From positions 17,569 to 81,568 of the forward strand of contig CAZEII010000012.1 of the NCBI GenBank assembly GCA_964511835.1: a stretch of 64,000 bases of DNA, given 5' to 3'. This DNA comes from an uncultured Acidobacteriota bacterium. GTDB taxonomy: Bacteria; Acidobacteriota; Polarisedimenticolia; Polarisedimenticolales; DASRJG01. Below are positions 3 through 14,533 of the stretch, one piece after another (within the stretch, counting starts at the first letter, position 1; every line of letters begins with the position of its first letter). The translations under genes were made by a program, and so were the position numbers. The notes under the pieces are model-generated. The model saw only the letters and a list, made by a program, of their open reading frames with translations, was not told the origin of the DNA and searched no databases.

Positions 3-2606
3 AGATTCGCTCCGGGAATCGGGCTTCCGGGGCGCGTTTGGGAGAGCCGGCGCCCTGCGTGGATTCCCGACGTCGTCCAGGATGCGAATTTCCCTCGTTC
101 GTCGATCGCCGACGCCGAGGGCCTTCACGGCGCCCTCGGCTTCCCGATCGTGCTCGGAGAGCAGGTGCTCGGGGTGATGGAGTTCTTCAGCCAGGAGATC
201 GTCGAGCCCGACGAGCCCCTGCTCGAGCTCCTGGGAACGGTGGGAAGCCAGATCGGCCAGTTCATCCAGCGGAGGCGCGCGCAGGAGGAGCTGGACAAGT
301 TCTTCGCCATGTCGCTCGACATGCTGTGCATCGCCGGTGTCGACGGGTACTTCAAGCGCGTGAACGCGGCGTGGGAGAAGACGCTCGGCTGGACGAGCGC
401 CGAGCTGCTCGAGCGCTCGTACCTCCACTTCGTGCACCCCGACGATCGCGCGGCCACGATCGAGCGGGCGAGGAGCCACATCGCGACGGGCGAGGACCTC
501 GTCTCGTTCGAGAACCGGTACGCGTGCAAGGACGGCTCCTATCGCTGGCTGTTCTGGAAGGCCGCGCTCGACGCCGAGGAGCAGCGGATCTACGCGATCG
601 CGCGGGACGTGACGGAGCAGCGCCGGGCTCGGGAGGCGCAGGAGGAGAACGCCGCGCGATTGGTCCAGCTCGTCAAGGAGCTGGAGCTGGCGCGGCACCG
701 CGCGGAGGACGCGGTGCGCGTCAAGTCGGACTTCTTGGCCAACATGAGCCACGAGATCCGGACGCCGATGAACGCGGTGATGGGGATGACGGATCTCGCT
801 CTGGCCACGGAGCTGAGCGCCGAGCAGCGGAGCTACCTGGCGACGGTCAAGGTCTCCGCGCGGGCGCTGCTCGATCTGGTCGACGACATCCTCGACCTTT
901 CCAAGATCGAGGCGGGGAAGCTCGAGCTGGACCGCGTCGAGCTGGACGTTCGCGAGACCGTCGGGGATGCGATCAAGGTGCTCGCGGTGCGCGCGAGCCA
1001 GAAAGGACTCGAGCTAGCCTGCCGCATCTCCCCCGCGGTACCCCAGATCGTCCGCGGGGATCCTGGGCGGCTCCGCCAGGTCGTCGTCAATCTGGTCGGG
1101 AACGCGATCAAGTTCACCGAGCACGGCGAGGTCGTGCTCGACGCCGACGTGGAGCTCGTGGACGATGATGACGTCTGGATTCATTTCTCGGTCAGGGACA
1201 CGGGAATCGGCGTCCCCCTGGAAAAGCGCGAGCAGATCTTCGCCCCGTTCACGCAGGCCGACACGTCGACGACGCGGCGATTCGGCGGAAGCGGACTCGG
1301 CCTCGCTATCGCGACCCAGCTCGTCGAGATGATGGGAGGACGACTCGCCGTCGAGAGCGAGGTCGGACGCGGCAGCACGTTCTCGTTCACCGCGCGGTTC
1401 GAGCGCGAGCGGCACGAGCCCGCCCGGGCGGCGCCTCCCGCTGGGCGGGTCGACCTCGCCGGCCTCTCGGTCCTCGTGGTCGACGACAACACGACCAACC
1501 GCCGGATCCTCACCGAGATGCTCACGAACTGGAGAATGCGGCCGGTCGCGACCTCGGGTGGCGCGGAGGCGCTGCAGAAGATGAAGGAGGCGCACGCCGC
1601 CGGGCAGCCGTTCGGGCTGCTGCTTTCCGACGGACAGATGCCGGAGATGGACGGATTCATGCTCGCCGAGGCCGTCAAGCGCGATCCCGCGCTGCGAGCG
1701 GTGCCGATGATCATCCTGACTTCGGCCGGGCGCCCCGAGGACGGTGCGAGGTCCCGGCGCCTCGGCATCGCCGCGTTCCTCACCAAGCCGGTGAAGCAGT
1801 CGGAGCTGCTCGACGCCATGGCGATCGCGATCGCGGGGATACCGTCCGACGCAGGCACGGCCGGTGCCACCGGCGCGGCGGCGCACAAGCCGGCGCGCTC
1901 GCTCAGGATCCTGCTCGCGGAGGACAACCCGGTGAACCAGCACGTGGCCAAGCGCATCCTGGAGAAGCGCGGCCATCGGGTGACCGTCGTCGGGAACGGC
2001 CGCGAGGCGGTCGCAGCGCTCGCGCCGGAAGCGGCGGGCCGGTTCGACGTCGTTCTGATGGACGTGCAGATGCCGGAGATGGACGGCTTGGATGCGACCG
2101 TCGCCATCCGCGCGCGCGAAAAGGGCACGGCCACGCGCGTGCCGATCGTGGCGATGACCGCTCACGCCATGGAGGGGGACCGCGAACGCTGCCTCCAGGC
2201 GGGTATGGACGGGTACGTCACCAAACCCGTCGAGGCCGACCGGCTCTTCGAGGCCGTCGAATCCTCCGCCGGCCGATTCGACCCCACCGTCGCCGCGGCG
2301 CGGCTCGGCGGCGACCGCCGTCTTCTCCGGGAGATGCTCGACCTCTTTCTCGCCGAGTGCCCCGGCATGATGTCGGAGATTCGCCGGGCGATCGAGGCAC
2401 GGGATGCCGAGGCGCTCCGCCGCGCGGCCCACGCGCTCAAGGGGTCGGTCGCAAACTTCGGAGCGTCCCGGCCGGTCGAGGCGGCGAGAACGCTCGAGAA
2501 GCTCGGCATCGACCGCGACTTGGCGGGCGCTGCCGCCGCACTCAACGCGCTGCAGATCGCTCTCGACGAGTTCCGGCGGGAGGCGTCGGCGGAGGGGCCA
2601 CCATGA
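3..2606 (+). CDS. Hybrid sensor histidine kinase (partial GAF, PAS, HisKA, HATPase_c, 2x REC, Hpt); 5' end lies outside the window
   Basis: Frame is open from the window edge (RFAPGIGLPGRVWES..GFPI, GAF-like). H-box FLANMSHEIRTPMN, N-box LVGNAIKFT, G-boxes DTGIG and GGSGLGL, two receivers (LLSDGQMPEMDG, VLMDVQMPEMDG), Hpt AAHALKGS. Confidence 0.95.
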   Translation, partial: RFAPGIGLPGRVWESRRPAWIPDVVQDANFPRSSIADAEGLHGALGFPIVLGEQVLGVMEFFSQEIVEPDEPLLELLGTVGSQIGQFIQRRRAQEELDKFFAMSLDMLCIAGVDGYFKRVNAAWEKTLGWTSAELLERSYLHFVHPDDRAATIERARSHIATGEDLVSFENRYACKDGSYRWLFWKAALDAEEQRIYAIARDVTEQRRAREAQEENAARLVQLVKELELARHRAEDAVRVKSDFLANMSHEIRTPMNAVMGMTDLALATELSAEQRSYLATVKVSARALLDLVDDILDLSKIEAGKLELDRVELDVRETVGDAIKVLAVRASQKGLELACRISPAVPQIVRGDPGRLRQVVVNLVGNAIKFTEHGEVVLDADVELVDDDDVWIHFSVRDTGIGVPLEKREQIFAPFTQADTSTTRRFGGSGLGLAIATQLVEMMGGRLAVESEVGRGSTFSFTARFERERHEPARAAPPAGRVDLAGLSVLVVDDNTTNRRILTEMLTNWRMRPVATSGGAEALQKMKEAHAAGQPFGLLLSDGQMPEMDGFMLAEAVKRDPALRAVPMIILTSAGRPEDGARSRRLGIAAFLTKPVKQSELLDAMAIAIAGIPSDAGTAGATGAAAHKPARSLRILLAEDNPVNQHVAKRILEKRGHRVTVVGNGREAVAALAPEAAGRFDVVLMDVQMPEMDGLDATVAIRAREKGTATRVPIVAMTAHAMEGDRERCLQAGMDGYVTKPVEADRLFEAVESSAGRFDPTVAAARLGGDRRLLREMLDLFLAECPGMMSEIRRAIEARDAEALRRAAHALKGSVANFGASRPVEAARTLEKLGIDRDLAGAAAALNALQIALDEFRREASAEGPP

Positions 2607-3466
2607 AAAGGAAGGAGCTCGTCCTCGTCGTCGACGACGTTCGCGTCACGAGGCATCTGCTGCAGTCGGTGATCGAGAAGGCCGGATACGCGGTGACGAC
2701 GGCGAGCGACGGACAGGAGGCCCTCGACCAAGCGCGGCGAACCGACCTGCGCGCTCCGGATCTGATCCTGCTCGACGTGTGGATGCCGGGAATGTCGGGG
2801 CTCGACGTTTTGGCGCGCCTGAGGGCCGACGGGGTCGATTCGAAGGTCATCGTCATGACCGGGGACGACACGCCGGAGACGCTGCTCCAGGCGCTCCGAT
2901 CCCAGGCTCTGCATTTCGTGGCGAAGCCGATCGACGCCGCGGCGCTCGTCGAGCTCGTCGAGAGCGCGTTGGCCGCCGACGCCGGTCCCGATATCGAGGT
3001 CGTCTCGGCCCGCCCCGAGTGGGTCGAGCTGATCGTCCCGTGCACGCGCGAGGCGGCGTCGCGCATCGAGGGGTTCCTCACCCACCTCGACGCGGACCTC
3101 ACGCCGGAGGTGCGCGAGTCGGTCGGCTACGCGTTCCGCGAGCTCCTGCTCAATGCCGTCGAGTGGGGCGGCCGACTCGACCCGAACCGAAAGGTGCGGA
3201 TCGCCTGCCTTCGCGCCCGGCGCATGCTGCTCTACCGCATCGCCGATCCCGGGCCGGGGTTCCGGCTGGAGGACCTGACGCACGCCGCCATCTCCTACGA
3301 AGGCGATCCGATGGAGCACATGAAGGCCCGCGAGGAGAAAGGCCTCCGCCCCGGCGGCTTCGGCCTGCTCCTGGTCAAGGCGCAGGTGGACGAGCTGCTC
3401 TACAACGAGGCACGGAACGAAGTGGTGTTCGTCAAGTATCTCGATTCCCCGGGAGGTGGGTCGTGA
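2603..3466 (+). CDS. Response regulator receiver fused to an anti-sigma/RsbW-type HATPase_c domain
   Basis: ATGA overlap with the kinase stop. REC LILLDVWMPGMSG, then RELLLNAVEWG...IADPGPGF...GGFGLLLV. Confidence 0.88.
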   Translation: MKRKELVLVVDDVRVTRHLLQSVIEKAGYAVTTASDGQEALDQARRTDLRAPDLILLDVWMPGMSGLDVLARLRADGVDSKVIVMTGDDTPETLLQALRSQALHFVAKPIDAAALVELVESALAADAGPDIEVVSARPEWVELIVPCTREAASRIEGFLTHLDADLTPEVRESVGYAFRELLLNAVEWGGRLDPNRKVRIACLRARRMLLYRIADPGPGFRLEDLTHAAISYEGDPMEHMKAREEKGLRPGGFGLLLVKAQVDELLYNEARNEVVFVKYLDSPGGGS

Positions 3467-3547
3467 GGAAGCCGCCCGAGGCGCTGCCTTGTTACAAAAA
3501 GAAGTAGACTCCCGCCGTCGGCGCACCTGACCCCTTGGAGGGCCCGA

Positions 3548-4111
3548 ATGAGAAGGTTCCCCCTCGCCCTCGTTCTGATCGTCGCCGCCCTGCCGGCGCT
3601 GGCGCAAACCCCGGAACCGTCGCCTCCTCCGACCGACGACGAGAAACCAGCGGCGTTCAACCAGCGAGTGTTCTTCGGCGGCGCGGTCGGTGCGGCGTTC
3701 GGAACCGTCGATTACGTCGAGCTGGCGCCGATGGTCGGATTCCGAATCGCGCCCCGATTCGAGATGGGCGTTCAACCTTTCTACCGTTGGACGGACGACC
3801 ACCGCTACTCCCCGAGCTTCTCGACGACGGACTACGGCGCGACCATCTTTGGGAGGGTCCGCATCTGGCAGGGGTTGTTCGGCGAGGGGGATTACCAGTA
3901 CACGAGCTACGAGTATCAGAACGCCGGGGGCGGCAGCACTCGGGACACCAACAATGCGTTCCTCGCGGGAGCCGGGTACGCGTTTCCCGTCGCGCAGCAC
4001 GTGGCGTTCTACGCTTCCGCGCTCTACGACTTCACCTACAGTAGCAGCGATCTGCACTACCCGTACGACTCCCCCGTGCGCTATTCGGTCGGAGTGTCGG
4101 TCGGCTTCTGA
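3548..4111 (+). CDS. Secreted probable outer-membrane beta-barrel protein
   Basis: Signal peptide MRRFPLALVLIVAALPALA, alternating aromatic beta-strands, C-terminal Phe (VGVSVGF). Confidence 0.7.
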   Translation: MRRFPLALVLIVAALPALAQTPEPSPPPTDDEKPAAFNQRVFFGGAVGAAFGTVDYVELAPMVGFRIAPRFEMGVQPFYRWTDDHRYSPSFSTTDYGATIFGRVRIWQGLFGEGDYQYTSYEYQNAGGGSTRDTNNAFLAGAGYAFPVAQHVAFYASALYDFTYSSSDLHYPYDSPVRYSVGVSVGF

Positions 4112-4210
4112 CGTCACAGAACCGTCACCGGCCTGTTGCGTGTCCGGCGAGCCTCCGCATCTCCCTGATCCTATTCTCCGTATTCAGGCAAGGTCGCGGA
4201 GGAGGCGGAC

Positions 4211-4735
4211 ATGAAAGCGCTGCGAGACGTGGCATCGACCGACCTTCGGTGGTCCAAGCCCGACTTGTTTCGAAGACTCTACGAGCTCCGCTCCGAAACG
4301 GACCTCGTGGTGGTTCTCCGATGGGAAAAGGCGTTGTGCTCGAGCGCCCTGGCGGAGAGCGTGGACGGCCGTTGGATCCTGAGGCGGAACGGGGTGTTCA
4401 CGCGGAGAGTCACCCTCGTCCGCGAGGGGTCGACGAGCGAGCTGGCGTCGATGACCTCGCGCTGGGGAGGGGGCGGCATTGTCCACGGTCCCGCTTCGAG
4501 ACGCTACGAATGGCTCAAGCCGAGCTTCTGGCGCTCCCCGTGGATCTTCGCGGACGAATCGGGCCGTCCCGTCGTCCGTTTCGAGCCCGAGTGCTTCGGA
4601 CAAGGTGCGCGCGTGCAGGTGTCCCCCGAGCTGCGGAACCACTCGGATCTCCCCTTCCTCGTCACCCTGGGCTGGTACCTGCTCGTGCTGATGGCGGACG
4701 ACGGAGCGGTCGCCGCGGTGGCGGCCGCGAGCTAA
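4211..4735 (+). CDS. Hypothetical protein
   Basis: GGAGG RBS before ATG, natural-looking composition, fits between neighbouring genes. Confidence 0.65.
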   Translation: MKALRDVASTDLRWSKPDLFRRLYELRSETDLVVVLRWEKALCSSALAESVDGRWILRRNGVFTRRVTLVREGSTSELASMTSRWGGGGIVHGPASRRYEWLKPSFWRSPWIFADESGRPVVRFEPECFGQGARVQVSPELRNHSDLPFLVTLGWYLLVLMADDGAVAAVAAAS

Positions 4736-4823
4736 CGCCCCCAATCGGCCTGACCGGGCACGCACTCCCCTTTCGAGAGACGGGCGGCTATCATCTGGGA
4801 GACGCCGCAGGGAGGGGGCGTGC

Positions 4824-5168
4824 ATGACCGAGTTCGAGCTGATCAAGGCCACCGACGCGTACACGCTCGTTGCGGTGCGCGGACGGCTCGACCCTGCCGG
4901 AGTCGGTCTGATCGAGCTGAGGCTGACGAGCGAGACGGTCGCGCGCCGGAAGCCCGCGATCGTCGACGTCACGGCGGTCAACCTGATCGGGTCGATCGGG
5001 ATCGGGATGCTGGTCGGGATCGGTCACGCCATGAAGGGCCACGACCTCGGATTCGCGGTCGTGGCGTCCGGGCTCGTCAAGGAGATCCTGGACAAGGTCT
5101 CTTTGAACGCTCTCTTCCCGGTGGTCGAGACGGTCGACGAAGCGAAGGGCGCGCTCGGAGTGAGCTGA
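4824..5168 (+). CDS. STAS-domain anti-sigma factor antagonist
   Basis: VRGRLD...IVDVTAVNLIGSIGIGMLV pattern with the phosphorylatable Ser position; 114 aa. Confidence 0.85.
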   Translation: MTEFELIKATDAYTLVAVRGRLDPAGVGLIELRLTSETVARRKPAIVDVTAVNLIGSIGIGMLVGIGHAMKGHDLGFAVVASGLVKEILDKVSLNALFPVVETVDEAKGALGVS

Positions 5169-5308
5169 ATCGCGGCTCCGCTGCGGCCCACGACCCACCG
5201 GCGCCTCCCACCATTTCTCGCGCGACAACGTGGTAGCATCCGGGCATTTTCTGGTCGCCCGCTGGGCCGCTTTCAGTCGGACCAGAGCAAGCCACCGGAG
5301 GGACCTCG

Positions 5309-6145
5309 TTGCTCGAGGAGCGCTGGTTTGTGCTCGCCGACCAGCTTGCGGCCACCGAGTGCCGCCGCCGTGCTCTTCGACCGGAGGACGCCGAGGAATT
5401 TCGCTCCTTCATCCGGCTGCGCTTCGCCGAGCGCGGCGAGCGGATCGTGGCTGCGTACGACGGGCGAAGCAGCATCGAGACGTACTTGCTCGTCGTCATC
5501 GCGCGGGCGTTCGGCGACTGGCGACGTTCGGTCTGGGGACATTGGCGGCCGAGCACCGCGGCGCTGCGGCTGGGCACCGTCGCGATCGAGCTCGAGTGGC
5601 GAATCGGTCACCGCGGTGAATCGTTCGAGAGCGCAGCGGCCGAGTTGGGCTCCCGCTTCGGCCCGCGCGCCGGCCGTGAGGAGCTCGAGACGATCCGGCG
5701 GCACCTGCCCGAGCGGGTCCGGTGGCGGCAAGTCCCCGCCGAGGAGCTGGAAACCCGGGCGACCACGACGACGTCCCCGAACGAGGCCCTCGACGCCCGC
5801 GAGCGAGCCGATGCCGTGCGTCGGCTGGCGCCGCTCCTCCAAGAGACCCTGCGCGAGCTCCCGCCCTTGGATCGCCTCATCCTCCTCCTCGTTTTTCGAG
5901 AGGGACTCAGCGTCCGCGCCGTAGCCCGCTCCGTCGGGATGGATCACCAGCGCGTCGGGCGCCGCCTCGATCGAACGCTCGTCAGGCTGCGGGCCGCCAT
6001 GGAGACCGCCGGCGTGGACCGGCACGCCGCGCTGCTGCTTTTGGAGAAGTCCGGGGACGACGAACAGGGTTGGCTGGAAGCGATCGCGGAGCCCGAATGG
6101 GACAACCCGCCGCGGCGTCCGTCTACTGGAGAGGCAGAATCGTGA
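5309..6145 (+). CDS. Sigma-70 family ECF-like RNA polymerase sigma factor
   Basis: Region-2-like FDGRSS/ETYLLVVIARAFGDW and region-4 LPPLDRLILLLVFREGLSVRAVARSVG; start codon uncertain. Confidence 0.8.
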   Translation: MLEERWFVLADQLAATECRRRALRPEDAEEFRSFIRLRFAERGERIVAAYDGRSSIETYLLVVIARAFGDWRRSVWGHWRPSTAALRLGTVAIELEWRIGHRGESFESAAAELGSRFGPRAGREELETIRRHLPERVRWRQVPAEELETRATTTTSPNEALDARERADAVRRLAPLLQETLRELPPLDRLILLLVFREGLSVRAVARSVGMDHQRVGRRLDRTLVRLRAAMETAGVDRHAALLLLEKSGDDEQGWLEAIAEPEWDNPPRRPSTGEAES

Positions 6146-9100
6146 GCGAGCGATCACCCAGCCGGTTCGGCCCCGCGGGGAGGGACCCCTTCGACCCGTG
6201 CCCCACGGACGCCGAGTTGGCCGCTTTCTCGGAGGGCAAGCTCGGTCCGCCTCGCCCGGAAGAGGTCGCTCGCCACGTTCTGCACTGCGCGGAGTGCCAG
6301 GACGTGATCGGCTCGCTGGCCTATCGACACGCCGAGTCTCTTGCGGCCTCGTCTCGGGTCGCTTTCCCGCGGCGCGCCGCGATCGCGGCGGGGCTCCTGC
6401 TCGCGGTCCTCGCCGCTTCCGGGGGCGTGTGGCGGCTGTCGCGCGGCCGCACCTCGACGGGCATCGCCGACCTCGTGCGGGCGGTCGGACAGCGACGTCT
6501 GGTCGAGGCGCGCCTATCGGGCGGGTTCGCGTGGGCGCCCGTGACCGAAGTTCGAGGCGAGGGGGGCCCCGCCGGCACAGGGGCTCTGGATCCGGCGCGA
6601 TCGGAGATCGCGGGGGCGGCCGCCCGGATCCGCGGCGGCAAGATGTGGAACGACCCGACAGGAGACATGCACTCGCTGGGCGTCGCTTACCTCGTGCTCG
6701 GAAACGTGGACGAGGCGGTCACGGCGCTCGATGCGGCGGCGAAGGCGTCACCGGACGATGCCGCTGTGCTCTCGGACTTGGCAGCCGCGTGCATCGAGAA
6801 GGGAAAGGCTCCCGATCAGGCCCAGCAGCTGGTTCGCGCGCTCGACCTCTCGGAGAAGGCGATCGCGCGCGCGCCCGCCTTCGTCGAGGCGCGGTTCAAC
6901 AAGGCGCTGGCCCTCGAAGCGCTCGGCCTCCGGGACGCGGCGATCGAGGCCTGGGAGAGCTACGTCAAGGCGGACCCGTCATCGCCCTGGTCGAACGAGG
7001 CGCGGAGCCGATTGGCGAAATTGCGGAGCGCATCGCGGCTCGAGAGGTGGGAGGACAGCGCCCAGGCCTTCCAATCCGCCTGCTCGGCGGGTGATGCGCG
7101 GCGCATCGAGGAGATCGTGCGGGCGCACCCGCAGCAATCCTCCGAAGCGCTGATGACGGATTTGGGGCGCTGGGCCGATCTCGCGCTGACGGGCCAGCCC
7201 AGCGCGGGGGCTACCCTCCGTGCCGTCGAGAGCGGCTCGGCGGTCATGGCCCGGGTCGTCGGAGATCCGATCGTCAAGGACGCGGTCGCCGAGATCCGGA
7301 GATCGGCCGCCGACCGCGAGCGGTTGAGCCTGCTCGCGGCGGCGCACCGCCAGCTCCGCCTCGGCCGCGCCGCCGAGGACGCGATGCAGGCGAACGACGG
7401 GAAGCGCCTGCTGACGGACGCGTCCGACCGATTCGCGAAGCTGAAGAGCTCGTATCGCGACCTCGCTTTGCTCTACGAGCTGTCGAGCGAGTACTACATC
7501 GATCCGGCGGGAGCTTTCACCCCCCGGCTCGAGGCGCTGATCGAGCGCTATCCCGCCGGCGAGAAGCGGATCGTGGGAGCGAGGGCGAGGTGGTTGATGG
7601 GGCTCGCGCTCGGCGTATCCGGCCGGACGTCCCAGGCGTTGACATCGCTCGCGGAAGCCGGCGAGGGGCTGCGCGCGCTGGGCTTCACGGCCGACGCCGT
7701 TTTTGTGCGCTCAATCGAGGCGAACACCTGGTGGATGCTCGGTCGGTCGGGTCGCGCGTGGACGCTGCATCGCGATGTCTTCCGGCAGCTCGACGCTGTG
7801 ACCGACGCGCGTCTCGTCCAGGCGCTCATCGGGGCGACCGCCAAAGAAGCGGAGCTGGACGGCCAGCAGCTCGCAGCGCTGTCGATCGGGCAAGCCGCAC
7901 TAGCGATGTCCAAACGCCACAATTCCGCTTTCGACCGATGCGATGGCCTCGCGTGGTTTGCGAGTGCCGCCGCGCGGGCGGGCCGAACCGCCGCAGCGGG
8001 GGACGCGGTGCATGAAGCTCGTGGCCTGCTTCCCCAGGTTTCCGATCCAAGCACTCACGCACGGCTCGATGGCCTGCTCGGCCTTGCCGAGGCTCGCCTG
8101 AGCCTCGACGTGAATCCTGACGACGCGCTCCGAGCAGCGGATCGCTCGGTGGCGTGGCTCGAATCCGTCGACAAGGAGAATCTGCTCGCGGAAGCCTACG
8201 AGCTCCGGGCAAAGGCGAAGGAGAAGTCGGGGGACCTCGACAGCGCCGCGAAGGACTACCTCTCGGCGCTTCAGACGGTGGAGCACCAGCGCGATCGTCT
8301 CAGAGACGTTTCGCTGCGCACCTCGTTCGTCGACACGGCGTGGGAGCTTGGACGCGATGTCGTTCGGTTCGAGATCGATCGCGGCGACCCTCGTGGTGCG
8401 CTCGCAATGGCCGACCGACTTCGGGCGACCTCGGTTGCACCGCCGATGAAGCTGTCGCCCGAAGAAGCGCGCGACCCGGTCGATGCTTTGGTCCACCAAT
8501 TGGGCCCCGATGATGCGGTCATTTTCTATGAGATCTTGGAGCACCGGACGATCGCGTGGGTCCTGCGCGCGGGCAGAGTTCAGTCGGCCGTTCTTCCCAT
8601 CGAGGAGCGCGCGATCGATCTTTTCGTCGACGCGATCCGTCGCGAAATGACGCCCGGCGACTCCGGAGCGGACGAGGGCGGGGGTCGGAAGCTGTTCGAG
8701 CAGGTCGTCGGCCCGCTGCGTGGCCGCCTCGAAGGTGCACAGCGGATCATCATCGTCCCGGACGGACGTCTTCACTCGATCCCGTGGGGAGCGCTTCAGC
8801 AGGCGCCAAGCGGCCGCAGATGGATCGAGGACGCGTCGGTGGCGGTGGCTCCGTCACTTCGGTGTCTCATCGGGCGTCGCGTCGGAGCCGGCGAGCCGGC
8901 CGATTTCCGCGTCGTTGCCGTCGGCAACCCGGCCTTCGACCGCCTGGCCTTCCCCGGCCTGCCCGATCTTCCGGCGGCGGCGAACGAGGCTCGGGAGATC
9001 GGCGCGCTCTATGCGAGATCGTCTGTGCTCGTCGGCTCCGACGCGATACCCGATCGCTTCCTCGCCGAGATTGCCAGCGCGGAAGTCCTCCACGTAGCCG

Positions 9101-9534
9101 CCCACGCGATACCCAGCGGCGTTGACCCCGACCGATCGACGGTCGTCCTCGCTCCCGGCGGCACGATCGCGTCGGACGGGGGGCTGACTGCGGGTGAGAT
9201 TCGCGGCCACGATCTGCGTAGAGTGCGACTGGCCGTGCTCGCGGCCTGTCGCTCGGGAGATGGTCCACTCTCTCGCATCGAGGGACCGCTTAGCCTCGCG
9301 CGACCGCTCCTGGAAGACGGCGCTCGCAACGTCGTGGTCTCACTTTGGGATTTGCCCGACGAGGCGGGTGCGTCGGTCATGGTGGCGTTGCACCGCGCCC
9401 TGCGTGATGGCGCCGATCCGATTGATGCTCTGCGCCGAGCTCAGCTCGAGTGTTGGTCAGCTCCGAATCCAGATCCACGCGCCTGCGGCGGGTTGCAATT
9501 GATCGTGAACGAACCGGGGGGAGGTCGAAGATGA
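6142..9534 (+). CDS. Zinc-finger anti-sigma (zf-HC2)-TM-TPR-CHAT (caspase-like) protease
   Basis: GTGA overlap with sigma stop. HVLHCAECQD zinc finger, hydrophobic AAIAAGLLLAVLAASGGVW, TPR helices (ARFNKALALEALG), CHAT His (VLHVAAHA) and Cys (LAVLAACRSG), VVVSLWDLPD. Confidence 0.9.
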   Translation: MSERSPSRFGPAGRDPFDPCPTDAELAAFSEGKLGPPRPEEVARHVLHCAECQDVIGSLAYRHAESLAASSRVAFPRRAAIAAGLLLAVLAASGGVWRLSRGRTSTGIADLVRAVGQRRLVEARLSGGFAWAPVTEVRGEGGPAGTGALDPARSEIAGAAARIRGGKMWNDPTGDMHSLGVAYLVLGNVDEAVTALDAAAKASPDDAAVLSDLAAACIEKGKAPDQAQQLVRALDLSEKAIARAPAFVEARFNKALALEALGLRDAAIEAWESYVKADPSSPWSNEARSRLAKLRSASRLERWEDSAQAFQSACSAGDARRIEEIVRAHPQQSSEALMTDLGRWADLALTGQPSAGATLRAVESGSAVMARVVGDPIVKDAVAEIRRSAADRERLSLLAAAHRQLRLGRAAEDAMQANDGKRLLTDASDRFAKLKSSYRDLALLYELSSEYYIDPAGAFTPRLEALIERYPAGEKRIVGARARWLMGLALGVSGRTSQALTSLAEAGEGLRALGFTADAVFVRSIEANTWWMLGRSGRAWTLHRDVFRQLDAVTDARLVQALIGATAKEAELDGQQLAALSIGQAALAMSKRHNSAFDRCDGLAWFASAAARAGRTAAAGDAVHEARGLLPQVSDPSTHARLDGLLGLAEARLSLDVNPDDALRAADRSVAWLESVDKENLLAEAYELRAKAKEKSGDLDSAAKDYLSALQTVEHQRDRLRDVSLRTSFVDTAWELGRDVVRFEIDRGDPRGALAMADRLRATSVAPPMKLSPEEARDPVDALVHQLGPDDAVIFYEILEHRTIAWVLRAGRVQSAVLPIEERAIDLFVDAIRREMTPGDSGADEGGGRKLFEQVVGPLRGRLEGAQRIIIVPDGRLHSIPWGALQQAPSGRRWIEDASVAVAPSLRCLIGRRVGAGEPADFRVVAVGNPAFDRLAFPGLPDLPAAANEAREIGALYARSSVLVGSDAIPDRFLAEIASAEVLHVAAHAIPSGVDPDRSTVVLAPGGTIASDGGLTAGEIRGHDLRRVRLAVLAACRSGDGPLSRIEGPLSLARPLLEDGARNVVVSLWDLPDEAGASVMVALHRALRDGADPIDALRRAQLECWSAPNPDPRACGGLQLIVNEPGGGRR

Positions 9535-10451
9535 GATATCGATGGTTGTCGTTGACGGTTCTCTTGGTACTGATTCTGCCGGGATGCGTGCACAACGCTC
9601 CCGTGACGACCGTCAGCACCGCGGCATCGCAGGCGGACGCGCCGGCGCGGGACCAGGCGGACATACTTTTCCACGGGCTGATAGCGTTCGTCTTCAAGAA
9701 GGACGATACCGTCGAGAGCGTCTTCTTGAGCCCGGACGCCGAACCCCACATACCTCTGATAGCGGTCAATACCACGGATATCGACAAGCTGAATGCGAGT
9801 GATCCCGATCTCATCGCGTCGGGAGACGGGGACGCAGGCTTCGCGGTCTGGAAATTCACCGAGGCGACGATCGACCAAGCCGATTTCTCAGACAAATCTC
9901 TGAGAAAAGACATGACCGCACTGGACTTGAACAACCCGGACTACACGCTGCTCCGTTGGGTGCCCAGCATGGACGACATATTCGGTTCGCTCCAAAAAGT
10001 GGATCAGAAGGAGATCGACTCGGCGCCAGCGCGGGGAAAGTGGCCCAAGGGCTGGATGACCCCCGTATTTGACGAGCTCACGCACCGGACCGATCCGTGG
10101 ACCATCGGCAATCGCCGCAACACACCGGTCGCCGACGGCGTCCGCCTACGTCTTCAGCTCAGCGATCCGGGAAGACCGTTCGGAATCCTGATCACGCGGA
10201 TAGACCCAAAGGATCCAACGAAGAAAGTTGACGAAACGATTGTAGTGAAAGGCGGCGCGACGATTTTCATCAGCGACTACCCGACGAAGATACCGAAACC
10301 CGGCAACGATTTGACTCACTTTCGTCACTATTACACGCTTCGTTATCCCGATAAATCGGGCTACGACCCCGTCCACGGCGGTCCGCCGACGCCGTATCCA
10401 TCGCGTTGCGCTCCAGGCGTGTTTTACCCGCCGGACCCGGACCTCCCATGA
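9531..10451 (+). CDS. Putative lipoprotein of unknown function
   Basis: ATGA overlap with the CHAT gene; lipobox LILPGC after a hydrophobic stretch. Confidence 0.75.
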   Translation: MRYRWLSLTVLLVLILPGCVHNAPVTTVSTAASQADAPARDQADILFHGLIAFVFKKDDTVESVFLSPDAEPHIPLIAVNTTDIDKLNASDPDLIASGDGDAGFAVWKFTEATIDQADFSDKSLRKDMTALDLNNPDYTLLRWVPSMDDIFGSLQKVDQKEIDSAPARGKWPKGWMTPVFDELTHRTDPWTIGNRRNTPVADGVRLRLQLSDPGRPFGILITRIDPKDPTKKVDETIVVKGGATIFISDYPTKIPKPGNDLTHFRHYYTLRYPDKSGYDPVHGGPPTPYPSRCAPGVFYPPDPDLP

Positions 10452-11920
10452 TTAGGGGGGCGGCGAGGACTGTCGCGGCGATCGTGTTTTCCGCCTGGGC
10501 GACGACCGAAATCGCGATGGCCGATCGCGTTCCCAAGGGGGTGTGCTTCAAGAACGTCGACGACCGACTGGAAATCCTGTTGGCCGTCGATCTCAAACCC
10601 TCCCAGGCCCCGATGAAGCAATTGAAGGATGTCCAAGCACTTGGCCCGCTGTTCCAGTTTCTCGTGCAACATGCCGCGTGGATCGAGCCGAGCATCGCGC
10701 CCGAACGAGCGGTCAAACTTCATCTGCTTCGTAGTTACACCGTCAGATTCAAGCCCGGCGTCCACAAGACGCCTCAGGAATTGCTCGATCTGACACAGGG
10801 ATTGATTCAACTCGGTCCAACGGTGATTGCGCGCGCTGCGCCGGTCCCGAGCGCGCGACCTCCGAGCAACGATCCCTACGTCGGTGCGGGGCGCCCGGTG
10901 ACCTATCCTGCCCAGACTCCTTGCGGGACTCAGTGGTACCTGTTCGACACGGGAGTCGATTTCGCCTGGAATTGCTCAGCGACGGGGGCGTCGGTCGTCG
11001 TCGCCGATGTCGATTGGGGGTTTGACCTGACGCATTCTGAGCTTTCCGGCGCTTGGGACCCGAACCACACCTACGACATGTGCAACGGGGCAAGTGCTCC
11101 CGGGTGGGCCTACCACGGAACCGGGGTCGCCGGATTGATCGCCGCCCGACAAGACGGGAATGGAATTCAAGGGATCGCGTACCAGTCGACGATCTGGCCG
11201 ATCACGGCGTCCTGCTCGACAAACACCTATCTCCCCTGCGAGGCCAAATGGGAGAGTGGGAACCCTTGGGCGGATGCCATTGCGAAGGCTGCCACCGATC
11301 TCTGCGATAGTTGCAGAAAGGTCGTGGTTCTCGAGAACCAGACATGTTGCTACGGCAACTATGAAGCAAGCATTGCGGTCAACACGACGATCACAGCCGC
11401 GATCGCAAAAAAAGTCGTCGTGGTGGTCGCCGCCGGGAACGGTTACAAGGACGCCACGTACGACGATGTCGGTACTCTTATCCCAGAGAGCGGCGCAATC
11501 GTCGTCGGCTCCACCGATTATGTCGACGATTATCGCCTCTCGGCGGACAGCAATTTCGGTGCGCGTATCCTGGTTTCGGCGCCGGGGGACATGGACCACG
11601 ACCTGACTCTTACGACGGGTGGGCGGAAGTGCCTTGGCGAGCCGTCAGGTACGACGTACAGCGAGTGCTTCGGAGGCACCTCCGGCGCGGCCGCCAAGGT
11701 CGCTGGAGTCGTCGCGCTGATGCTCCAAAAGAATACCGGTCTAGATCCAGAAGGCGTGAGAGAAATCCTGAAGCGAGTCGGCAAGCCAGTGACATCCAGT
11801 GACGGAAAACAACCTGGCGGCGTTTTTCTAGACGCCCACTGCGCTGTCGCCGCCGCAGACCCTGTCAGTTGCGGGCCCGTTTGCCCAACCCCCACGCCGA
11901 CGCCGACACCAACCCCTTGA
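10448..11920 (+). CDS. Secreted S8 subtilisin-like serine protease with Pro/Thr-repeat tail
   Basis: Triad motifs VADVDWG, YHGTGVAG, GGTSGAAAKVAG; oxyanion AAGNG; ATGA overlap; ends PTPTPTPTP. Confidence 0.92.
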   Translation: MIRGAARTVAAIVFSAWATTEIAMADRVPKGVCFKNVDDRLEILLAVDLKPSQAPMKQLKDVQALGPLFQFLVQHAAWIEPSIAPERAVKLHLLRSYTVRFKPGVHKTPQELLDLTQGLIQLGPTVIARAAPVPSARPPSNDPYVGAGRPVTYPAQTPCGTQWYLFDTGVDFAWNCSATGASVVVADVDWGFDLTHSELSGAWDPNHTYDMCNGASAPGWAYHGTGVAGLIAARQDGNGIQGIAYQSTIWPITASCSTNTYLPCEAKWESGNPWADAIAKAATDLCDSCRKVVVLENQTCCYGNYEASIAVNTTITAAIAKKVVVVVAAGNGYKDATYDDVGTLIPESGAIVVGSTDYVDDYRLSADSNFGARILVSAPGDMDHDLTLTTGGRKCLGEPSGTTYSECFGGTSGAAAKVAGVVALMLQKNTGLDPEGVREILKRVGKPVTSSDGKQPGGVFLDAHCAVAAADPVSCGPVCPTPTPTPTPTP

Positions 11921-13227
11921 CGATCATGCTGCCGCCGCTTGCTGTCGCACTCGCGATCCTCGTCGCCGACGCTCGGGCGACCTCTCCGGTGATCTCCCCA
12001 ACGCAAGAGCTGGTGCTCGGCGAGAAGGCCTTGCAGCAGTATCTGGCGAAGCATCCGGAGACGGCGGATGCGGAGCTTGCCGATCGTGTCGACGCGATCG
12101 GCAGGCGGCTCTCCCCTTTCACGGACCGGCCCGAAGCATCTCACCGAGCGATCGTGGTCGCCGGAGACGAGATGCAAGCGGTGCCCTTCTTGGGCGGGAC
12201 GGTTGCCGTCACCGAGGGTCTGGGACGCGCGCTCGACGATGACGAGATCGCTTTCGCAGTCGGCCACGAGATGGCGCACATCGACCTTCGTCATCAGCCG
12301 GGGCGCGTGGTCGCCGAGGACGTGGTCCGGGAGGCGGCCGGAGCGACCTCGGCGGCGAGTGCGGCGCTGTCGGTGCACGACCGCCACGCCGAGCTGGAGG
12401 CCGACCGCTTCGGAGCCCTCTACGCCGTGCGAGCCGGGTTCCGTTTCAGCGCGGCGGTCGGTGCGCTGCGCAAGCTCCAGGAGAGCGGAGGCTTGGATCA
12501 GGACGCCAAACATCCCGACTACGCCGATCGGATCCAAGCTCTCGCGGGCTTCGAGGCGGAGCTGCGCCGCACGCTCACGGCGTTCGATCGGGGATGCGCC
12601 GCGCTCAAGGATGCGAGGCTGACCGACGCGGTCGAGTACTTCTCGCTCTTCGTCGCGGACTTTCCCAACAGTCTCGCCGGACGGATCGATCTCGGAGCGG
12701 CGTATCTGTCGCGCTGGCGCGCCGGCCACGGCCCGACCGAGGGGCTGGCGGAGGAGCTTCCCATCCTGTCCGATCCTGGGGTCTCCGTTCGGTCCGGGCT
12801 CGCGGACGCCGACGCGCGCAACGCGCGCTCGCACTTCGAGGCGGCGCTGCGGCTCGATCCGGGCTCGGTGCCGGCCCGCGCCGGGTTCGCGCTTCTTCTG
12901 ATCCGCGAGGGTCAGATCGCCGAGGCTCGAGGCTACCTGCGCCCCGTCGCGAACGATCCCCAGCTCGGGCCCGAGGTCACGCTGCTCCTCGGCAACGCCG
13001 ACTACCTCGACGGGGCGTGGGCGGCCGCGGCCGCGCACTACGAGCAGGCGCTCCAGGCGCGCCCAGGCTGGAGCGGCGCGCGAGCGAACCTCGCGCGTGC
13101 GCTCGAACGCCAAGGCAAGGACAAGGAATCGAGAGCCCAGTGGGAGATGCTGCGCGACGATCCCGTTTGGGGCGACGAGGCTCGCCGGCGGACGGAGGCT
13201 GCGCCGCAGCAAGCGAATCCGAAATAG
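11917..13227 (+). CDS. M48 family metallopeptidase with C-terminal TPRs
   Basis: GHEMAH, ELEADRFG, HPDYADRI and TPR repeats; TTGA overlap (alternative ATG at 11926). Confidence 0.88.
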   Translation: MTIMLPPLAVALAILVADARATSPVISPTQELVLGEKALQQYLAKHPETADAELADRVDAIGRRLSPFTDRPEASHRAIVVAGDEMQAVPFLGGTVAVTEGLGRALDDDEIAFAVGHEMAHIDLRHQPGRVVAEDVVREAAGATSAASAALSVHDRHAELEADRFGALYAVRAGFRFSAAVGALRKLQESGGLDQDAKHPDYADRIQALAGFEAELRRTLTAFDRGCAALKDARLTDAVEYFSLFVADFPNSLAGRIDLGAAYLSRWRAGHGPTEGLAEELPILSDPGVSVRSGLADADARNARSHFEAALRLDPGSVPARAGFALLLIREGQIAEARGYLRPVANDPQLGPEVTLLLGNADYLDGAWAAAAAHYEQALQARPGWSGARANLARALERQGKDKESRAQWEMLRDDPVWGDEARRRTEAAPQQANPK

Positions 13228-13250
13228 CTGCTCGACCCAGGAGGACTGTC

Positions 13251-14081
13251 ATGCATCGTCGACTGATCGGCATCGTCTTGGTGATTGCAACGTCAACGGT
13301 TGCGAGCGCGCAGAGCATCAATCTTCTCTCCTCCACGAGGAATGAGGTCTATAGGGAACAGGCGCGTGCCGACGGGTTCGAGCCCGCGCTTCAGATGGCC
13401 GTTCCGATCGGCGCCACCGCGGGTCTCGCCGAGCACGATTCGGACGTCGGTGCGGTGCTCGGATTTCAGCTGTGGAAGAAGGATGTAGGCTTCCTCGCCG
13501 TCTTCTTCAGCTTCTCGGGGGCGCAGACGATCAGCGGGAGCCAGAGCGAATTCGGCTCCTTCCTCCTGAACCCGGCGACGAACGGCAACTCGTTCTATCT
13601 CGCAGGTAACCGAGTTTGGCAAGCCGGACACGCTCCTCTGTGGATGGGACCTTCGGGAAGAATCGGCGTCACCCGGAGCACCTGGGAGGCCACGACGGCG
13701 GCCGGCGCGCAGTCGGTCGGAGGATTCGTAGGCTATTTCTCCCCGACGTTCCTTCTGACGTCGGGAACCTACAGCACGACGACCGGCGACCGCAACGAAT
13801 ACCAGTTCGGTTTGGAGGTCGGCCCGAGCCTGCGCCTTCTGGGCGGCGATCTCGCGCAGTCGGACGCGTTCCTCTCGGATCCCACCGTGCTCGGCTCAGC
13901 GGATCACTCCTACCTCGGCTACGAGCTGACCTTCTTCGCACGCCTCAACTCCGCTCAACCGTTCATCCGGATCAGCCACTTCAGCGCCGACAATCCGATC
14001 TCGGGCTTCAGCGGCACGCAGGCCATCATCGGCTTCAACATCCTCACGTCCGTGTTCAAGAGCGAGGTCAAGCAGCAGTAA
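13251..14081 (+). CDS. Secreted beta-rich hypothetical protein (possible outer-membrane protein)
   Basis: GGAGGA RBS, signal peptide MHRRLIGIVLVIATSTVASA, aromatic-rich strands. Confidence 0.75.
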   Translation: MHRRLIGIVLVIATSTVASAQSINLLSSTRNEVYREQARADGFEPALQMAVPIGATAGLAEHDSDVGAVLGFQLWKKDVGFLAVFFSFSGAQTISGSQSEFGSFLLNPATNGNSFYLAGNRVWQAGHAPLWMGPSGRIGVTRSTWEATTAAGAQSVGGFVGYFSPTFLLTSGTYSTTTGDRNEYQFGLEVGPSLRLLGGDLAQSDAFLSDPTVLGSADHSYLGYELTFFARLNSAQPFIRISHFSADNPISGFSGTQAIIGFNILTSVFKSEVKQQ

Positions 14082-14091
14082 CCGCACGCCC

Positions 14092-14496
14092 TCACGCCTT
14101 CTCCTTCGGCGCCATGACGAACACGTAGACGAGAAGGGCAAGGCCGACGAGCATCGGAATCAGCGCGACGAAGTGGGCTTGGTTGTGCCCCTCGACGTTC
14201 ATGAGGAACACCCAGAGGCCGACCCCCACGCCGAGGGTGATCAGGCCGCCGAGCTTCAGGCCTTCGCGCTGGCGCCTGGCGGCCGCTCGCTCGTGCTCGC
14301 GAAACAGCTCGATCGCGGCGTTGGCTCCGGGCTGCGGCGTCTCCGCGATTTTCTTGAGAACCTCCCCGCGGTAGAACGCCTCGCGCTCGCGGCGGCGAGC
14401 GTCCGCCCAGGACACCACCGCCAGGAACCCGAAGAGGGCAAACGACCCGACCATGCACATGAACATTGCGGCGACGGCGACGGTGTAATCCGACAT
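14092..14496 (-). CDS. Small membrane protein, DUF6249-like
   Basis: N-terminal TM, RRREREAFYRGEVLKKIAE, two C-terminal TMs (LKLGGLITLGVGVGL, LIPMLVGLALL); GGAGGA upstream. Confidence 0.75.
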   Translation of the reverse strand: MSDYTVAVAAMFMCMVGSFALFGFLAVVSWADARRREREAFYRGEVLKKIAETPQPGANAAIELFREHERAAARRQREGLKLGGLITLGVGVGLWVFLMNVEGHNQAHFVALIPMLVGLALLVYVFVMAPKEKA

Positions 14497-14533
14497 CGTA
14501 TCCTCCGTTGCGACGTTCGATCGCACGAGGTGA

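Follow-up and report, generated by a model that had tools for sequence, protein, structure and literature searches.

The window analyzed here is a stretch of 64,000 nucleotides (nt) from an uncultured Acidobacteriota bacterium (contig CAZEII010000012.1, positions 17,569 to 81,568 of the forward strand), and its interval 5309-14081 holds six close-packed open reading frames (ORFs) on the plus strand, led by genes for an atypical sigma factor and a transmembrane (TM) anti-sigma factor with a caspase-like CHAT protease domain (Table 1). Start/stop overlaps of 4 nt join the first five genes (GTGA at 6142, ATGA at 9531, ATGA at 10448 and TTGA at 11917), the stop codon of the M48 protease gene is followed after 24 nt by the start of gene 6, which has a ribosome-binding site (AGGAGGA) in front of it, and Shine-Dalgarno-like GGAG runs are found ahead of 6142, 9531 and 13251. 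The initial annotation, made from the DNA alone, had described the same layout at the same coordinates, with its four overlaps and close sixth gene, and the translational coupling that it proposed between gene 2 and the sigma gene is borne out by the first of these overlaps. Tight linkage of the genes recurs in the related loci L001, L083, L088 and L089 and so is not a matter of chance, and a 4-nt overlap of the sigma and anti-sigma genes is also present in L086-L089. A sequence scan of 5309-14081 revealed no terminator-like or sigma-70-like site that stands out within the block. By inspection of hydropathy and lipoboxes, all five non-sigma products of the window carry export signals, although the Sec-type signals of the S8 protease, the M48 protease and the gene 6 product are hydrophobic N-terminal stretches judged by eye, not by a signal-peptide predictor.

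Gene 2 joins a zinc-binding anti-sigma motif, one predicted TM helix, tetratricopeptide repeats (TPRs) and a CHAT domain whose His/Cys dyad is intact, an architecture that the initial annotation had read correctly. The Cys-His-Cys-Cys (CHCC) motif is present, and H45, C49 and C52 are invariant in close relatives; the Pfam zf-HC2 match of gene 2 itself is sub-threshold (18.1 versus 22.2 bits), and several homologues match PF13490. The hydropathy peak of the TM helix has a counterpart of 2.1-2.9 at the equivalent position in homologues, and the helical scaffold continues past the TPRs to about amino acid (aa) 840. Among 73 near-full-length genomic members of the family, His988 is kept in 70 and Cys1036 in 69, and both residues are invariant in 42 homologues; this degree of retention implies a working protease. 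Between the TM helix and the TPRs lies a juxtamembrane motif, R119-x-x-E122-x-R124-L-[ST]-G-G-F, in which R119 is found in 65, E122 in 48 and R124 in 64 of the same 73 proteins. The public gene call places the start of gene 2 fifteen codons earlier, at 6097 (1145 aa), while alignment to a 63%-identical homologue favors the start at 6142.

Table 1. Features of the gene block and of its surroundings, in window coordinates.
Feature	Position	Strand	Description
Gene 1	5309..6145	+	Atypical sigma-70-family (ECF-like) sigma, 278 aa, TTG start
Gene 2	6142..9534	+	DdvA-like transmembrane anti-sigma factor with TPR-CHAT protease domain (predicted periplasmic), 1130 aa
Zinc-binding anti-sigma motif (CHCC), gene 2	6199..6297	+	C20 ... 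H45-x3-C49-x2-C52, read from the sequence
Single predicted transmembrane helix, gene 2, aa 76-97	6367..6432	+	Sole hydropathy peak >1.6 (Kyte-Doolittle 1.99)
Juxtamembrane motif RRLVEARLSGGFAWAP (R119, E122, R124), gene 2	6493..6540	+	Candidate cleavage or latch site (function inferred)
TPR repeats, gene 2, aa 177-290	6670..7011	+	TPR_2, TPR_8, TPR_1, E 1e-7 to 1e-8
CHAT caspase-like domain, gene 2, aa 848-1112	8683..9477	+	PF12770, E 1.6e-49, model 4-274 of 289
Catalytic His988	9103-9105	+	CHAT domain of gene 2
Catalytic Cys1036	9247-9249	+	CHAT domain of gene 2
Gene 3	9531..10451	+	Lipoprotein of the 'g3-like' family, lipobox ILPGC, Cys19
Gene 4	10448..11920	+	Predicted exported subtilase (S8), 490 aa
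Gene 5	11917..13227	+	Predicted exported M48 zinc metalloprotease, C-terminal TPRs, 436 aa
Gene 6	13251..14081	+	Predicted exported protein, 276 aa, no family match
Candidate operon promoter, -10-like box TAGCATC	5234..5240	+	TG two bases upstream
Upstream ORFs	150-2606, 3548-4735, 4824-5168	+	Among the hybrid kinase, STAS and no-Pfam ORFs
DUF6249-like membrane protein	about 14092-14520	-	Converges on gene 6
Canonical ECF sigma, 188 aa	14646-15212	+	Sigma70_r2 E 1.2e-15, r4_2 E 8e-11

A profile built from 42 sequences of the gene 2 family matched chain 8ROT_B in the PDB (991 aa, labeled 'CHAT domain-containing protein'), which is DdvA of Myxococcus xanthus, with an E-value of 1.8e-43. To our knowledge, DdvA is the sole anti-sigma factor with a caspase-like sensor domain that has been characterized. 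It forms a pair with DdvS, a sigma factor of the extracytoplasmic function (ECF) type, and the pair was described in Nucleic Acids Research in 2018 and, by cryo-electron microscopy (cryo-EM; PDB 8ROT, 8RW5 and 8RLZ), in Science Advances in 2024 (PMC6061681, PMC11506125). The cytoplasmic CHCC zinc three-helix bundle of DdvA was found experimentally to bind regions sigma2 and sigma4 of DdvS; one TM helix and a flexible linker connect it to a periplasmic TPR-CHAT dimer, which was solved by cryo-EM, is arrow-shaped and has an incomplete CHAT active site in which three alpha-helices are absent (PMC11506125). The family profile aligns with DdvA in two stretches, one taking in the zinc finger, TM helix, linker and TPR scaffold (profile 10-610, DdvA 7-587) and the other covering the His/Cys half of the CHAT domain (profile 937-1085, DdvA 834-980). 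In gene 2, the CHCC motif aligns with the zinc-binding anti-sigma (ZAS) domain of DdvA, the hydropathy peak with its TM helix W71-L92, the R119-R124 motif with R109-T-L-E-A-R114, and H988 and C1036 with DdvA H862 and C907. The linker that holds the DdvA motif (Q95-S143) faces the active site of the other protomer (PMC11506125).

The two proteins have their parts in the same order: a CHCC anti-sigma domain, a single TM helix and a long linker, then the TPR scaffold and a His-Cys CHAT domain. In both cases a sigma-70-family gene directly precedes the anti-sigma gene with translational coupling, and both units continue with an uncharacterized protein and one or more peptidase genes. By homology to DdvA, the TPR-CHAT part of gene 2 is predicted to face the periplasm, which is the orientation favored in the initial annotation and the one established experimentally for DdvA (PMC11506125). 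We consider it probable that the block is a trans-envelope signaling switch of the DdvS/DdvA type, representing a distant branch in the Acidobacteriota and Gemmatimonadota.

A TPR-CHAT anti-sigma factor is not categorically a new design, because that of DdvS-DdvA was published in 2018 and 2024. The initial annotation had presented it as new by argument from the type III-E craspase system, without naming DdvS-DdvA as the direct precedent, and while the architecture stands, the claim of novelty does not. Craspase also ties a TPR-CHAT protease to the release of an ECF-like sigma factor, and the CHAT fold and dyad are common to both. It is, however, an RNA-guided enzyme of the cytoplasm, bound to Cas7-11, with Csx30 as a separate, anti-sigma-like substrate; gene 2 of the window instead unites an anti-sigma domain and an exported CHAT domain in one chain, and a scan of flanking ORFs turned up no cas gene. 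Craspase Csx29 chains matched the family profile with an E-value of ~2e-5, far weaker than DdvA. Membership of gene 2 in type III-E craspases was considered and rejected on these grounds: the anti-sigma domain and TM helix, the lack of cas genes in the scanned flanking ORFs and of a PADLOC match, and the weak match to Csx29. What is new in the window family is its profile-level distance from DdvA, its occurrence in other phyla, its different type of sigma factor and a gene 3-like (g3-like) partner that DdvA-type loci are without. The window extends the caspase-like anti-sigma design to a large and distant family in uncultured soil phyla, and this family offers natural variation for testing CHAT autoproteolysis as the site-1 cleavage of the DdvA model, including a linker motif whose conservation comes close to that of the active site, proteins that have or lack the anti-sigma domain, and a dedicated partner.

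When the TPR-CHAT part of DdvA is removed, the remainder undergoes RseP-dependent degradation, and its authors propose that a signal induces CHAT autoproteolysis in trans, followed by cleavage by RseP (PMC11506125). Transferred to the window, the CHCC zinc finger of gene 2 would hold the 278-aa sigma factor at the inner membrane, and a single helix would cross the membrane to place the TPR-CHAT part in the periplasm, where it could serve both as sensor and as steric block to a site-2 protease. The periplasmic part would most likely be its own site-1 protease: a periplasmic signal would activate the His988/Cys1036 site, the activated domain would cut the stretch around R119-x-x-E-x-R124 in trans within a dimer, and an RseP-type intramembrane protease would then clear the stub and release the sigma factor. 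The lipoprotein encoded by gene 3 may be a dedicated partner of the periplasmic domain, acting as a ligand-presenting co-sensor, a regulator or a substrate, and the S8 and M48-TPR proteases could be clade-specific additions that process this lipoprotein or the anti-sigma factor, or that provide an envelope-remodeling output. The Sigma-E/RseA system likewise has a single-pass anti-sigma factor with a bulky periplasmic domain that must go before RseP acts, as was shown for DdvA; there, site 1 is cut by DegS or Prc, whereas here the site-1 protease is proposed to reside within the anti-sigma factor, and the window operon encodes no DegS-like PDZ protease.

For comparison, 18 metagenome loci with 43-66% identity to DdvA 834-980, treated as DdvA-type, were collected with a mixed-alignment search; a first metagenome scan with DdvA residues 834-980 as query had returned nothing. 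Where their flanks can be read, these loci are similar to that of M. xanthus, and 14 of the 18 have enough downstream sequence to look for a g3-like gene, which is present in none of the 14. The protein encoded after ddvA (120-143 aa in L091 and L095) was tried as a g3-like candidate and rejected, with an hhalign probability of <1%. Locus L091 (JGI Ga0216309_1000054, 924-9513), from a metagenome, repeats the ddv locus of M. xanthus, with genes in the order CHAT-SAVED effector, ECF sigma, DdvA-like protein, a 143-aa protein without known function, C25 peptidase and SMODS cyclase. Its sigma factor is a classical 181-aa ECF with regions 2 and 4 both above threshold, and its DdvA-like protein (990 aa, zf-HC2 33 bits) has a CHAT domain limited to PF12770 123-270, consistent with the active site described as 'incomplete' in DdvA. 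The CHAT domain of the window spans PF12770 4-274, which suggests that it may be complete. The window differs further from DdvA-type loci in its sigma factor (278 aa with an insert, versus classical ECFs of 181-187 aa), in the genes that follow (g3-like, S8 and M48, versus a 120-143-aa protein without known function and a C25 peptidase), in having no CBASS (cyclic-oligonucleotide-based anti-phage signaling system) or CRISPR island in sight near the block, and in its taxonomic range, since the window family occurs in Acidobacteriota and Gemmatimonadota, where the BLAST survey of the DdvA authors, which returned Myxococcota and one Comamonas only, found none (PMC11506125).

The sigma factor of the window consists of sigma2-like and sigma4 regions separated by a conserved insert of ~75 aa, and a C-terminal tail. 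Among Pfam models only region 4 is above threshold (Sigma70_r4_2, E 1.7e-6), and the ECF superfamily model TIGR02937 scores 33.7 bits over residues 13-230 against a cut-off of 42.9. Thirteen members of the family were compared, of which 12 match region 4, 6 match region 2 and 4 match Sigma70_ECF; the best PDB matches of the window protein (FliA, SigF and SigL) are confined to sigma4. The insert sequence WGKWRPSAEARRLGPVAVRLE-x-L-x-x-RDG is strongly conserved across this family of 250-310-aa sigma factors, which was seen in L002, L004, L006, L010, L012, L013, L015, L028, L031, L039, L041 and L067, while the C-terminal tail is variable. The TTG start is kept in L001. The same family also adjoins TPR-CHAT genes without a zinc-finger domain, and in L015 and L039 a separate gene of 300-380 aa lies between the sigma and CHAT genes. 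The sigma4 region of the window protein resembles SigF, FliA and WhiG as much as it does ECFs, and, taken together with the STAS gene found upstream, this makes a partner-switching input via STAS conceivable.

Homologues of gene 2 number 95 in the protein collection, four of them with at least 51% identity and the others with about 25-32%, and the taxa represented include Vicinamibacterales, Thermoanaerobaculia, Pyrinomonadaceae and Longimicrobium. A survey of one genome per species, using a profile from a 5-sequence alignment, yielded 79 loci, all metagenome-assembled and none >35% identical to gene 2 (the best match in the genome collection has 32%), so that the species of the window is not among them; most are from Acidobacteriota, some from Gemmatimonadota, and a few are labeled Chloroflexota. 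Three classes of N-terminus can be distinguished. About 15 loci carry H-x3-C-x2-C and a TM helix, and those with upstream sequence mostly have the same sigma family (270-310 aa) directly upstream. In about 11 loci, from Pyrinomonadaceae and Blastocatellia, the N-terminal region of ~115 aa is devoid of the zinc motif and followed by a TM helix, and the upstream gene, of ~190 aa, is sigma-sized, its identity being assigned by size only. The remaining loci have a signal peptide or lipobox alone and no sigma gene. By sequence comparison, the exported TPR-CHAT body is the constant part of the family and the anti-sigma domain is an add-on.

In the clade of the window, the whole sigma-CHAT-g3-S8-M48 block recurs with its 4-nt overlaps. 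Locus L001 has the five-gene block, with a CHAT protein 63% identical to that of the window, and the partial contigs L082-L084 (CHAT 51%) jointly show a 239-aa gene at the sigma position, which has no Pfam match, followed by CHAT, g3, S8 and M48. Two Logan contigs, with a g3 that is 47% identical, carry g3-S8-M48 behind an upstream gene without assignment. ZAS-type loci at about 30% identity retain the core of sigma, CHAT and g3 only. The neighborhood survey called for by the initial annotation thus found the gene after CHAT to be conserved, S8 and M48 to be conserved in the clade of the window, and gene 6 not to be conserved.

In nearly every genome locus, an ORF of 240-360 aa starts a few tens of bases past the CHAT stop codon. 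Thirty-five of these post-CHAT ORFs form one sequence cluster, and gene 3 with its close relatives aligns to that cluster with an hhalign probability of 98.4% (E 4e-15, 262 columns). Shared motifs are F-x-G-L-x-A-x-V, H-x-P, W-V-P and H-F-x-x-Y-x-L, and the family has an invariant Cys near the C-terminus and conserved His residues. With a superfamily hidden Markov model, at least 48 of the 79 genome loci were found to have a g3-like gene next to CHAT, almost always directly downstream, as were 28 of 52 independent metagenome loci. Simple HMMER iteration starting with gene 3 recovered only its closest relative among the loci, and the family link needed hhalign. When 1.84 billion representatives were scanned in full with HMMER for the subfamily of the window, only 22 proteins were recovered; a word-indexed search from an alignment of 18 sequences gave just 5. 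Neither gene 3 nor its family matched Pfam, NCBIfam or PADLOC, and tblastn of g3 against plasmids gave no match. An AlphaFold2 model of gene 3 from 16 sequences is mostly beta and confident (predicted local distance difference test 86.4, predicted template modeling score 0.83), whereas one from 5 sequences was unusable (31). Foldseek found no fold match for the former in the PDB and BFVD (best E 0.016, TM-score about 0.1). The initial annotation had named gasdermins among the effectors that TPR-CHAT proteases activate; a gasdermin identity was rejected for gene 3, which matches nothing in Pfam or PADLOC and whose confident model has no counterpart in the PDB at E <0.01, gasdermin structures included.

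A pair of CHAT and g3-like genes is also found in at least one cultured organism, the Gemmatimonadota isolate Gemmatirosa kalamazoonensis KBS708, on plasmid 1 (L090; NZ_CP007129.1, 167014-183580). Its TPR-CHAT gene, of the lipoprotein type, is apparently split into overlapping frames (6500-8824 and 7138-9606), which may reflect a frameshift or a sequencing error, and a g3-like gene follows at 9628-10650 (E 2.6e-18).

Several observations weigh against reading the block as a DdvS/DdvA-type switch. A pairwise phmmer search of gene 2 against PDB sequences (E 0.01) returned TPR designs only and not DdvA, and, as DdvA is reached by the profile and missed by the single sequence, the relationship is a distant one. 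Judged by its domain matches, the sigma factor of the window is not a standard ECF and is only weakly ECF-like; its similarity to any DdvS chain in the PDB is undetectable, with pairwise phmmer against the PDB giving sigma4 fragments alone. For DdvA itself, the trigger and the autoproteolysis step are not proven (PMC11506125). The candidate promoter adds a further point. In 12 of 14 related loci, a TAKCATC/TAGAATC box lies 27-75 nt ahead of the start of the sigma gene, and in L031 and L041 a TTGAC(T/A) box is found 17-19 nt upstream of it. A consensus scan gave no complete sigma-70 promoter, so that a promoter at TAGCATC is something we infer, and a search for an ECF-type autoregulatory promoter (GAAC...CGT) found none. 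The operon promoter looks sigma-A-like, of the housekeeping type, rather than ECF-type, and with such a shared -10-like box autoregulation is not evident. As for gene 3, the subfamily of the window carries lipobox or Sec signals and the g3-like protein of L053 looks to be of the Tat type, but export signals are missing from the g3-like proteins of 46 of the 48 other loci, while the adjacent CHAT protein is always exported (examples among loci L002-L081 are L011 13163-14041 and L022 13068-14072). Outside the clade of the window, this speaks against a simple complex in the periplasm. Lastly, most members of the family have no anti-sigma domain, which implies that the primary function of TPR-CHAT and g3 needs no sigma factor.

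The last point leads to a different explanation, in which the exported TPR-CHAT protein and g3 are primarily a protease and its substrate or inhibitor, comparable to separase and securin or to a toxin and its activation, and the sigma fusion is a secondary add-on that reports on the pair or tunes it. We regard this as a serious possibility, though not a probable one. Although devoid of an anti-sigma domain, most members of the family retain g3 directly downstream, the pair is present on the plasmid of a cultured isolate and in more than half of the independent metagenome loci, and the invariant Cys and conserved His residues of g3 are in keeping with it. Separase, whose fold TPR-CHAT shares, is co-expressed with a partner dedicated to it; g3 is folded and beta-rich in the model, unlike securin, which is disordered. 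The compartment mismatch described above counts against a pairing of this kind as well, and in the window the anti-sigma domain and its coupled sigma gene are intact and conserved within the clade. A broader and more tentative proposal, which we are inclined to doubt, is that the exported TPR-CHAT protein and an obligate g3-like partner form an undescribed two-component proteolytic module that has been wired to sigma factors independently in several lineages, whether through a zinc-finger fusion, an N-terminal fusion of non-zinc type or separate genes. In the lineage of the window, g3 would then have become a lipoprotein and two exported proteases would have been added, giving a periplasmic relay that releases an atypical three-part sigma factor.

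The S8 protease matches Peptidase_S8 (E 2.2e-26) with an intact D189/H223/S412 triad, and the motifs DVDWG, HGTGVAG and GTSGAA are intact by inspection. It resembles mycosin, although TIGR03921 gives 107 bits against a cut-off of 278, and its C-terminus is a Pro-Thr repeat, CPTPTPTPTPTP (11881-11917), with no domain beyond. The gene 3 homologue of L001 has a PT/PC-rich tether after its lipobox that is similar to this tail. An S8 gene follows g3 in L001, L083, L084 and the two Logan contigs, and in about 10-15 of the 79 genome loci. The M48 protease matches Peptidase_M48 (E 4.6e-15) as well as TPR_19 and TPR_2, with intact HEMAH (residue 117) and ELEAD (residue 159) motifs; it may start at ATG 11926 instead of TTG 11917, and from neither start does its N-terminal signal have a basic n-region. 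An M48 gene after g3 is conserved in the clade of the window only, and is essentially never found elsewhere. The initial annotation envisaged a cascade of three classes of protease, but only CHAT and g3 travel together across the 79 loci, and from the distribution of S8 and M48 such a cascade would be a lineage-specific elaboration. In Actinobacteria, ECF54 sigma factors have genes for a carboxypeptidase, a subtilase and CHAT proteins nearby, and proteolytic control was proposed (PMC8999054); this resembles the window in linking an ECF-type sigma to CHAT and subtilase genes, but the group belongs to another phylum and is described as having no anti-sigma factor, and the comparison is one of genomic context only.

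Gene 5 shares its layout of M48 plus TPRs with BepA, and E. coli bepA is a member of the sigma-E envelope-stress regulon. This bears on the alternative that the block is an envelope-stress or quality-control system, in which CHAT is the sensor and steric block, S8 or M48 cuts site 1 in the manner of DegS or Prc, and the exported proteases and lipoprotein are a repair output. All downstream products are predicted to be exported, canonical regulated intramembrane proteolysis has a separate site-1 protease, and the ddvS-ddvA unit of M. xanthus also holds a C25-type peptidase gene. On the other hand, most loci with the core of sigma, anti-sigma CHAT and g3 are without S8 and M48, which so cannot be the general site-1 protease, and the CHAT dyad is kept in nearly all members of the family. 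The match of gene 5 to the BepA model NF052400 (48.4 bits over residues 24-134) is far below the cut-off of 570, so that with its HEMAH motif and TPRs it is BepA-like in architecture only. On balance, we find this alternative unlikely.

A role in anti-phage defense was also put forward initially. It would have the anti-sigma CHAT protein sense infection, with the sigma factor or the three proteases producing a defensive or abortive response. DdvS-DdvA does control an island that combines CBASS with type III-B CRISPR, and it makes cells resistant to phage Mx4 (PMC11506125), and the defense context is reproduced in L091 by its CHAT-SAVED and SMODS genes, but the DdvA authors place just a subset of DdvA-like pairs next to defense genes. 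The S8 protease matches the generic 'subtilase' model of PADLOC (E 4e-14), while CHAT, g3, M48 and gene 6 are all without a PADLOC match. Some relatives have suggestive neighbors. Stand-alone CHAT proteins of 445-478 aa are encoded upstream of the sigma gene in L086 (2810-7044, where VWA genes are present too) and L087 (5570-7006), and TIR-WD40 and TIR-TPR genes lie upstream of the sigma/CHAT/g3 locus in L089 (1-4874), possibly hinting at a link to NLR-like (nucleotide-binding, leucine-rich-repeat) or defense genes in those lineages. Conversely, L001 and L088 are surrounded by respiratory and housekeeping genes, g3 occurs in no DdvA-type locus, and CBASS is missing from the window-type locus.

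Upstream of the block in the window, on the same strand, are a PAS-HisKA-HATPase-REC-REC-Hpt hybrid kinase, two ORFs without a Pfam match and a STAS-domain protein, and downstream, beyond the DUF6249-like membrane protein and the 188-aa ECF sigma factor, for which no anti-sigma partner was identified, are PanE and an oxygenase of the luciferase-like kind. A Pfam scan of flanking ORFs brought up neither cas nor CBASS genes, nor any others related to defense. A defensive function of the block is the least supported of the alternatives, and we think it improbable.

The product of gene 6 gave no match in Pfam, NCBIfam, PADLOC or the PDB, and the gene is absent from all related loci; it is probably co-transcribed with the operon, and possibly encodes an outer-membrane beta-barrel. 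Base composition varies along the block. In the window, the GC fraction is lower in gene 3 (0.585) and S8 (0.610) than in neighboring genes (0.62-0.71), as is that at third codon positions (0.72 and 0.70, versus 0.80-0.91). The GC dip in g3 and S8 persists in the relatives L001 and L083, yet their values at third codon positions are normal.

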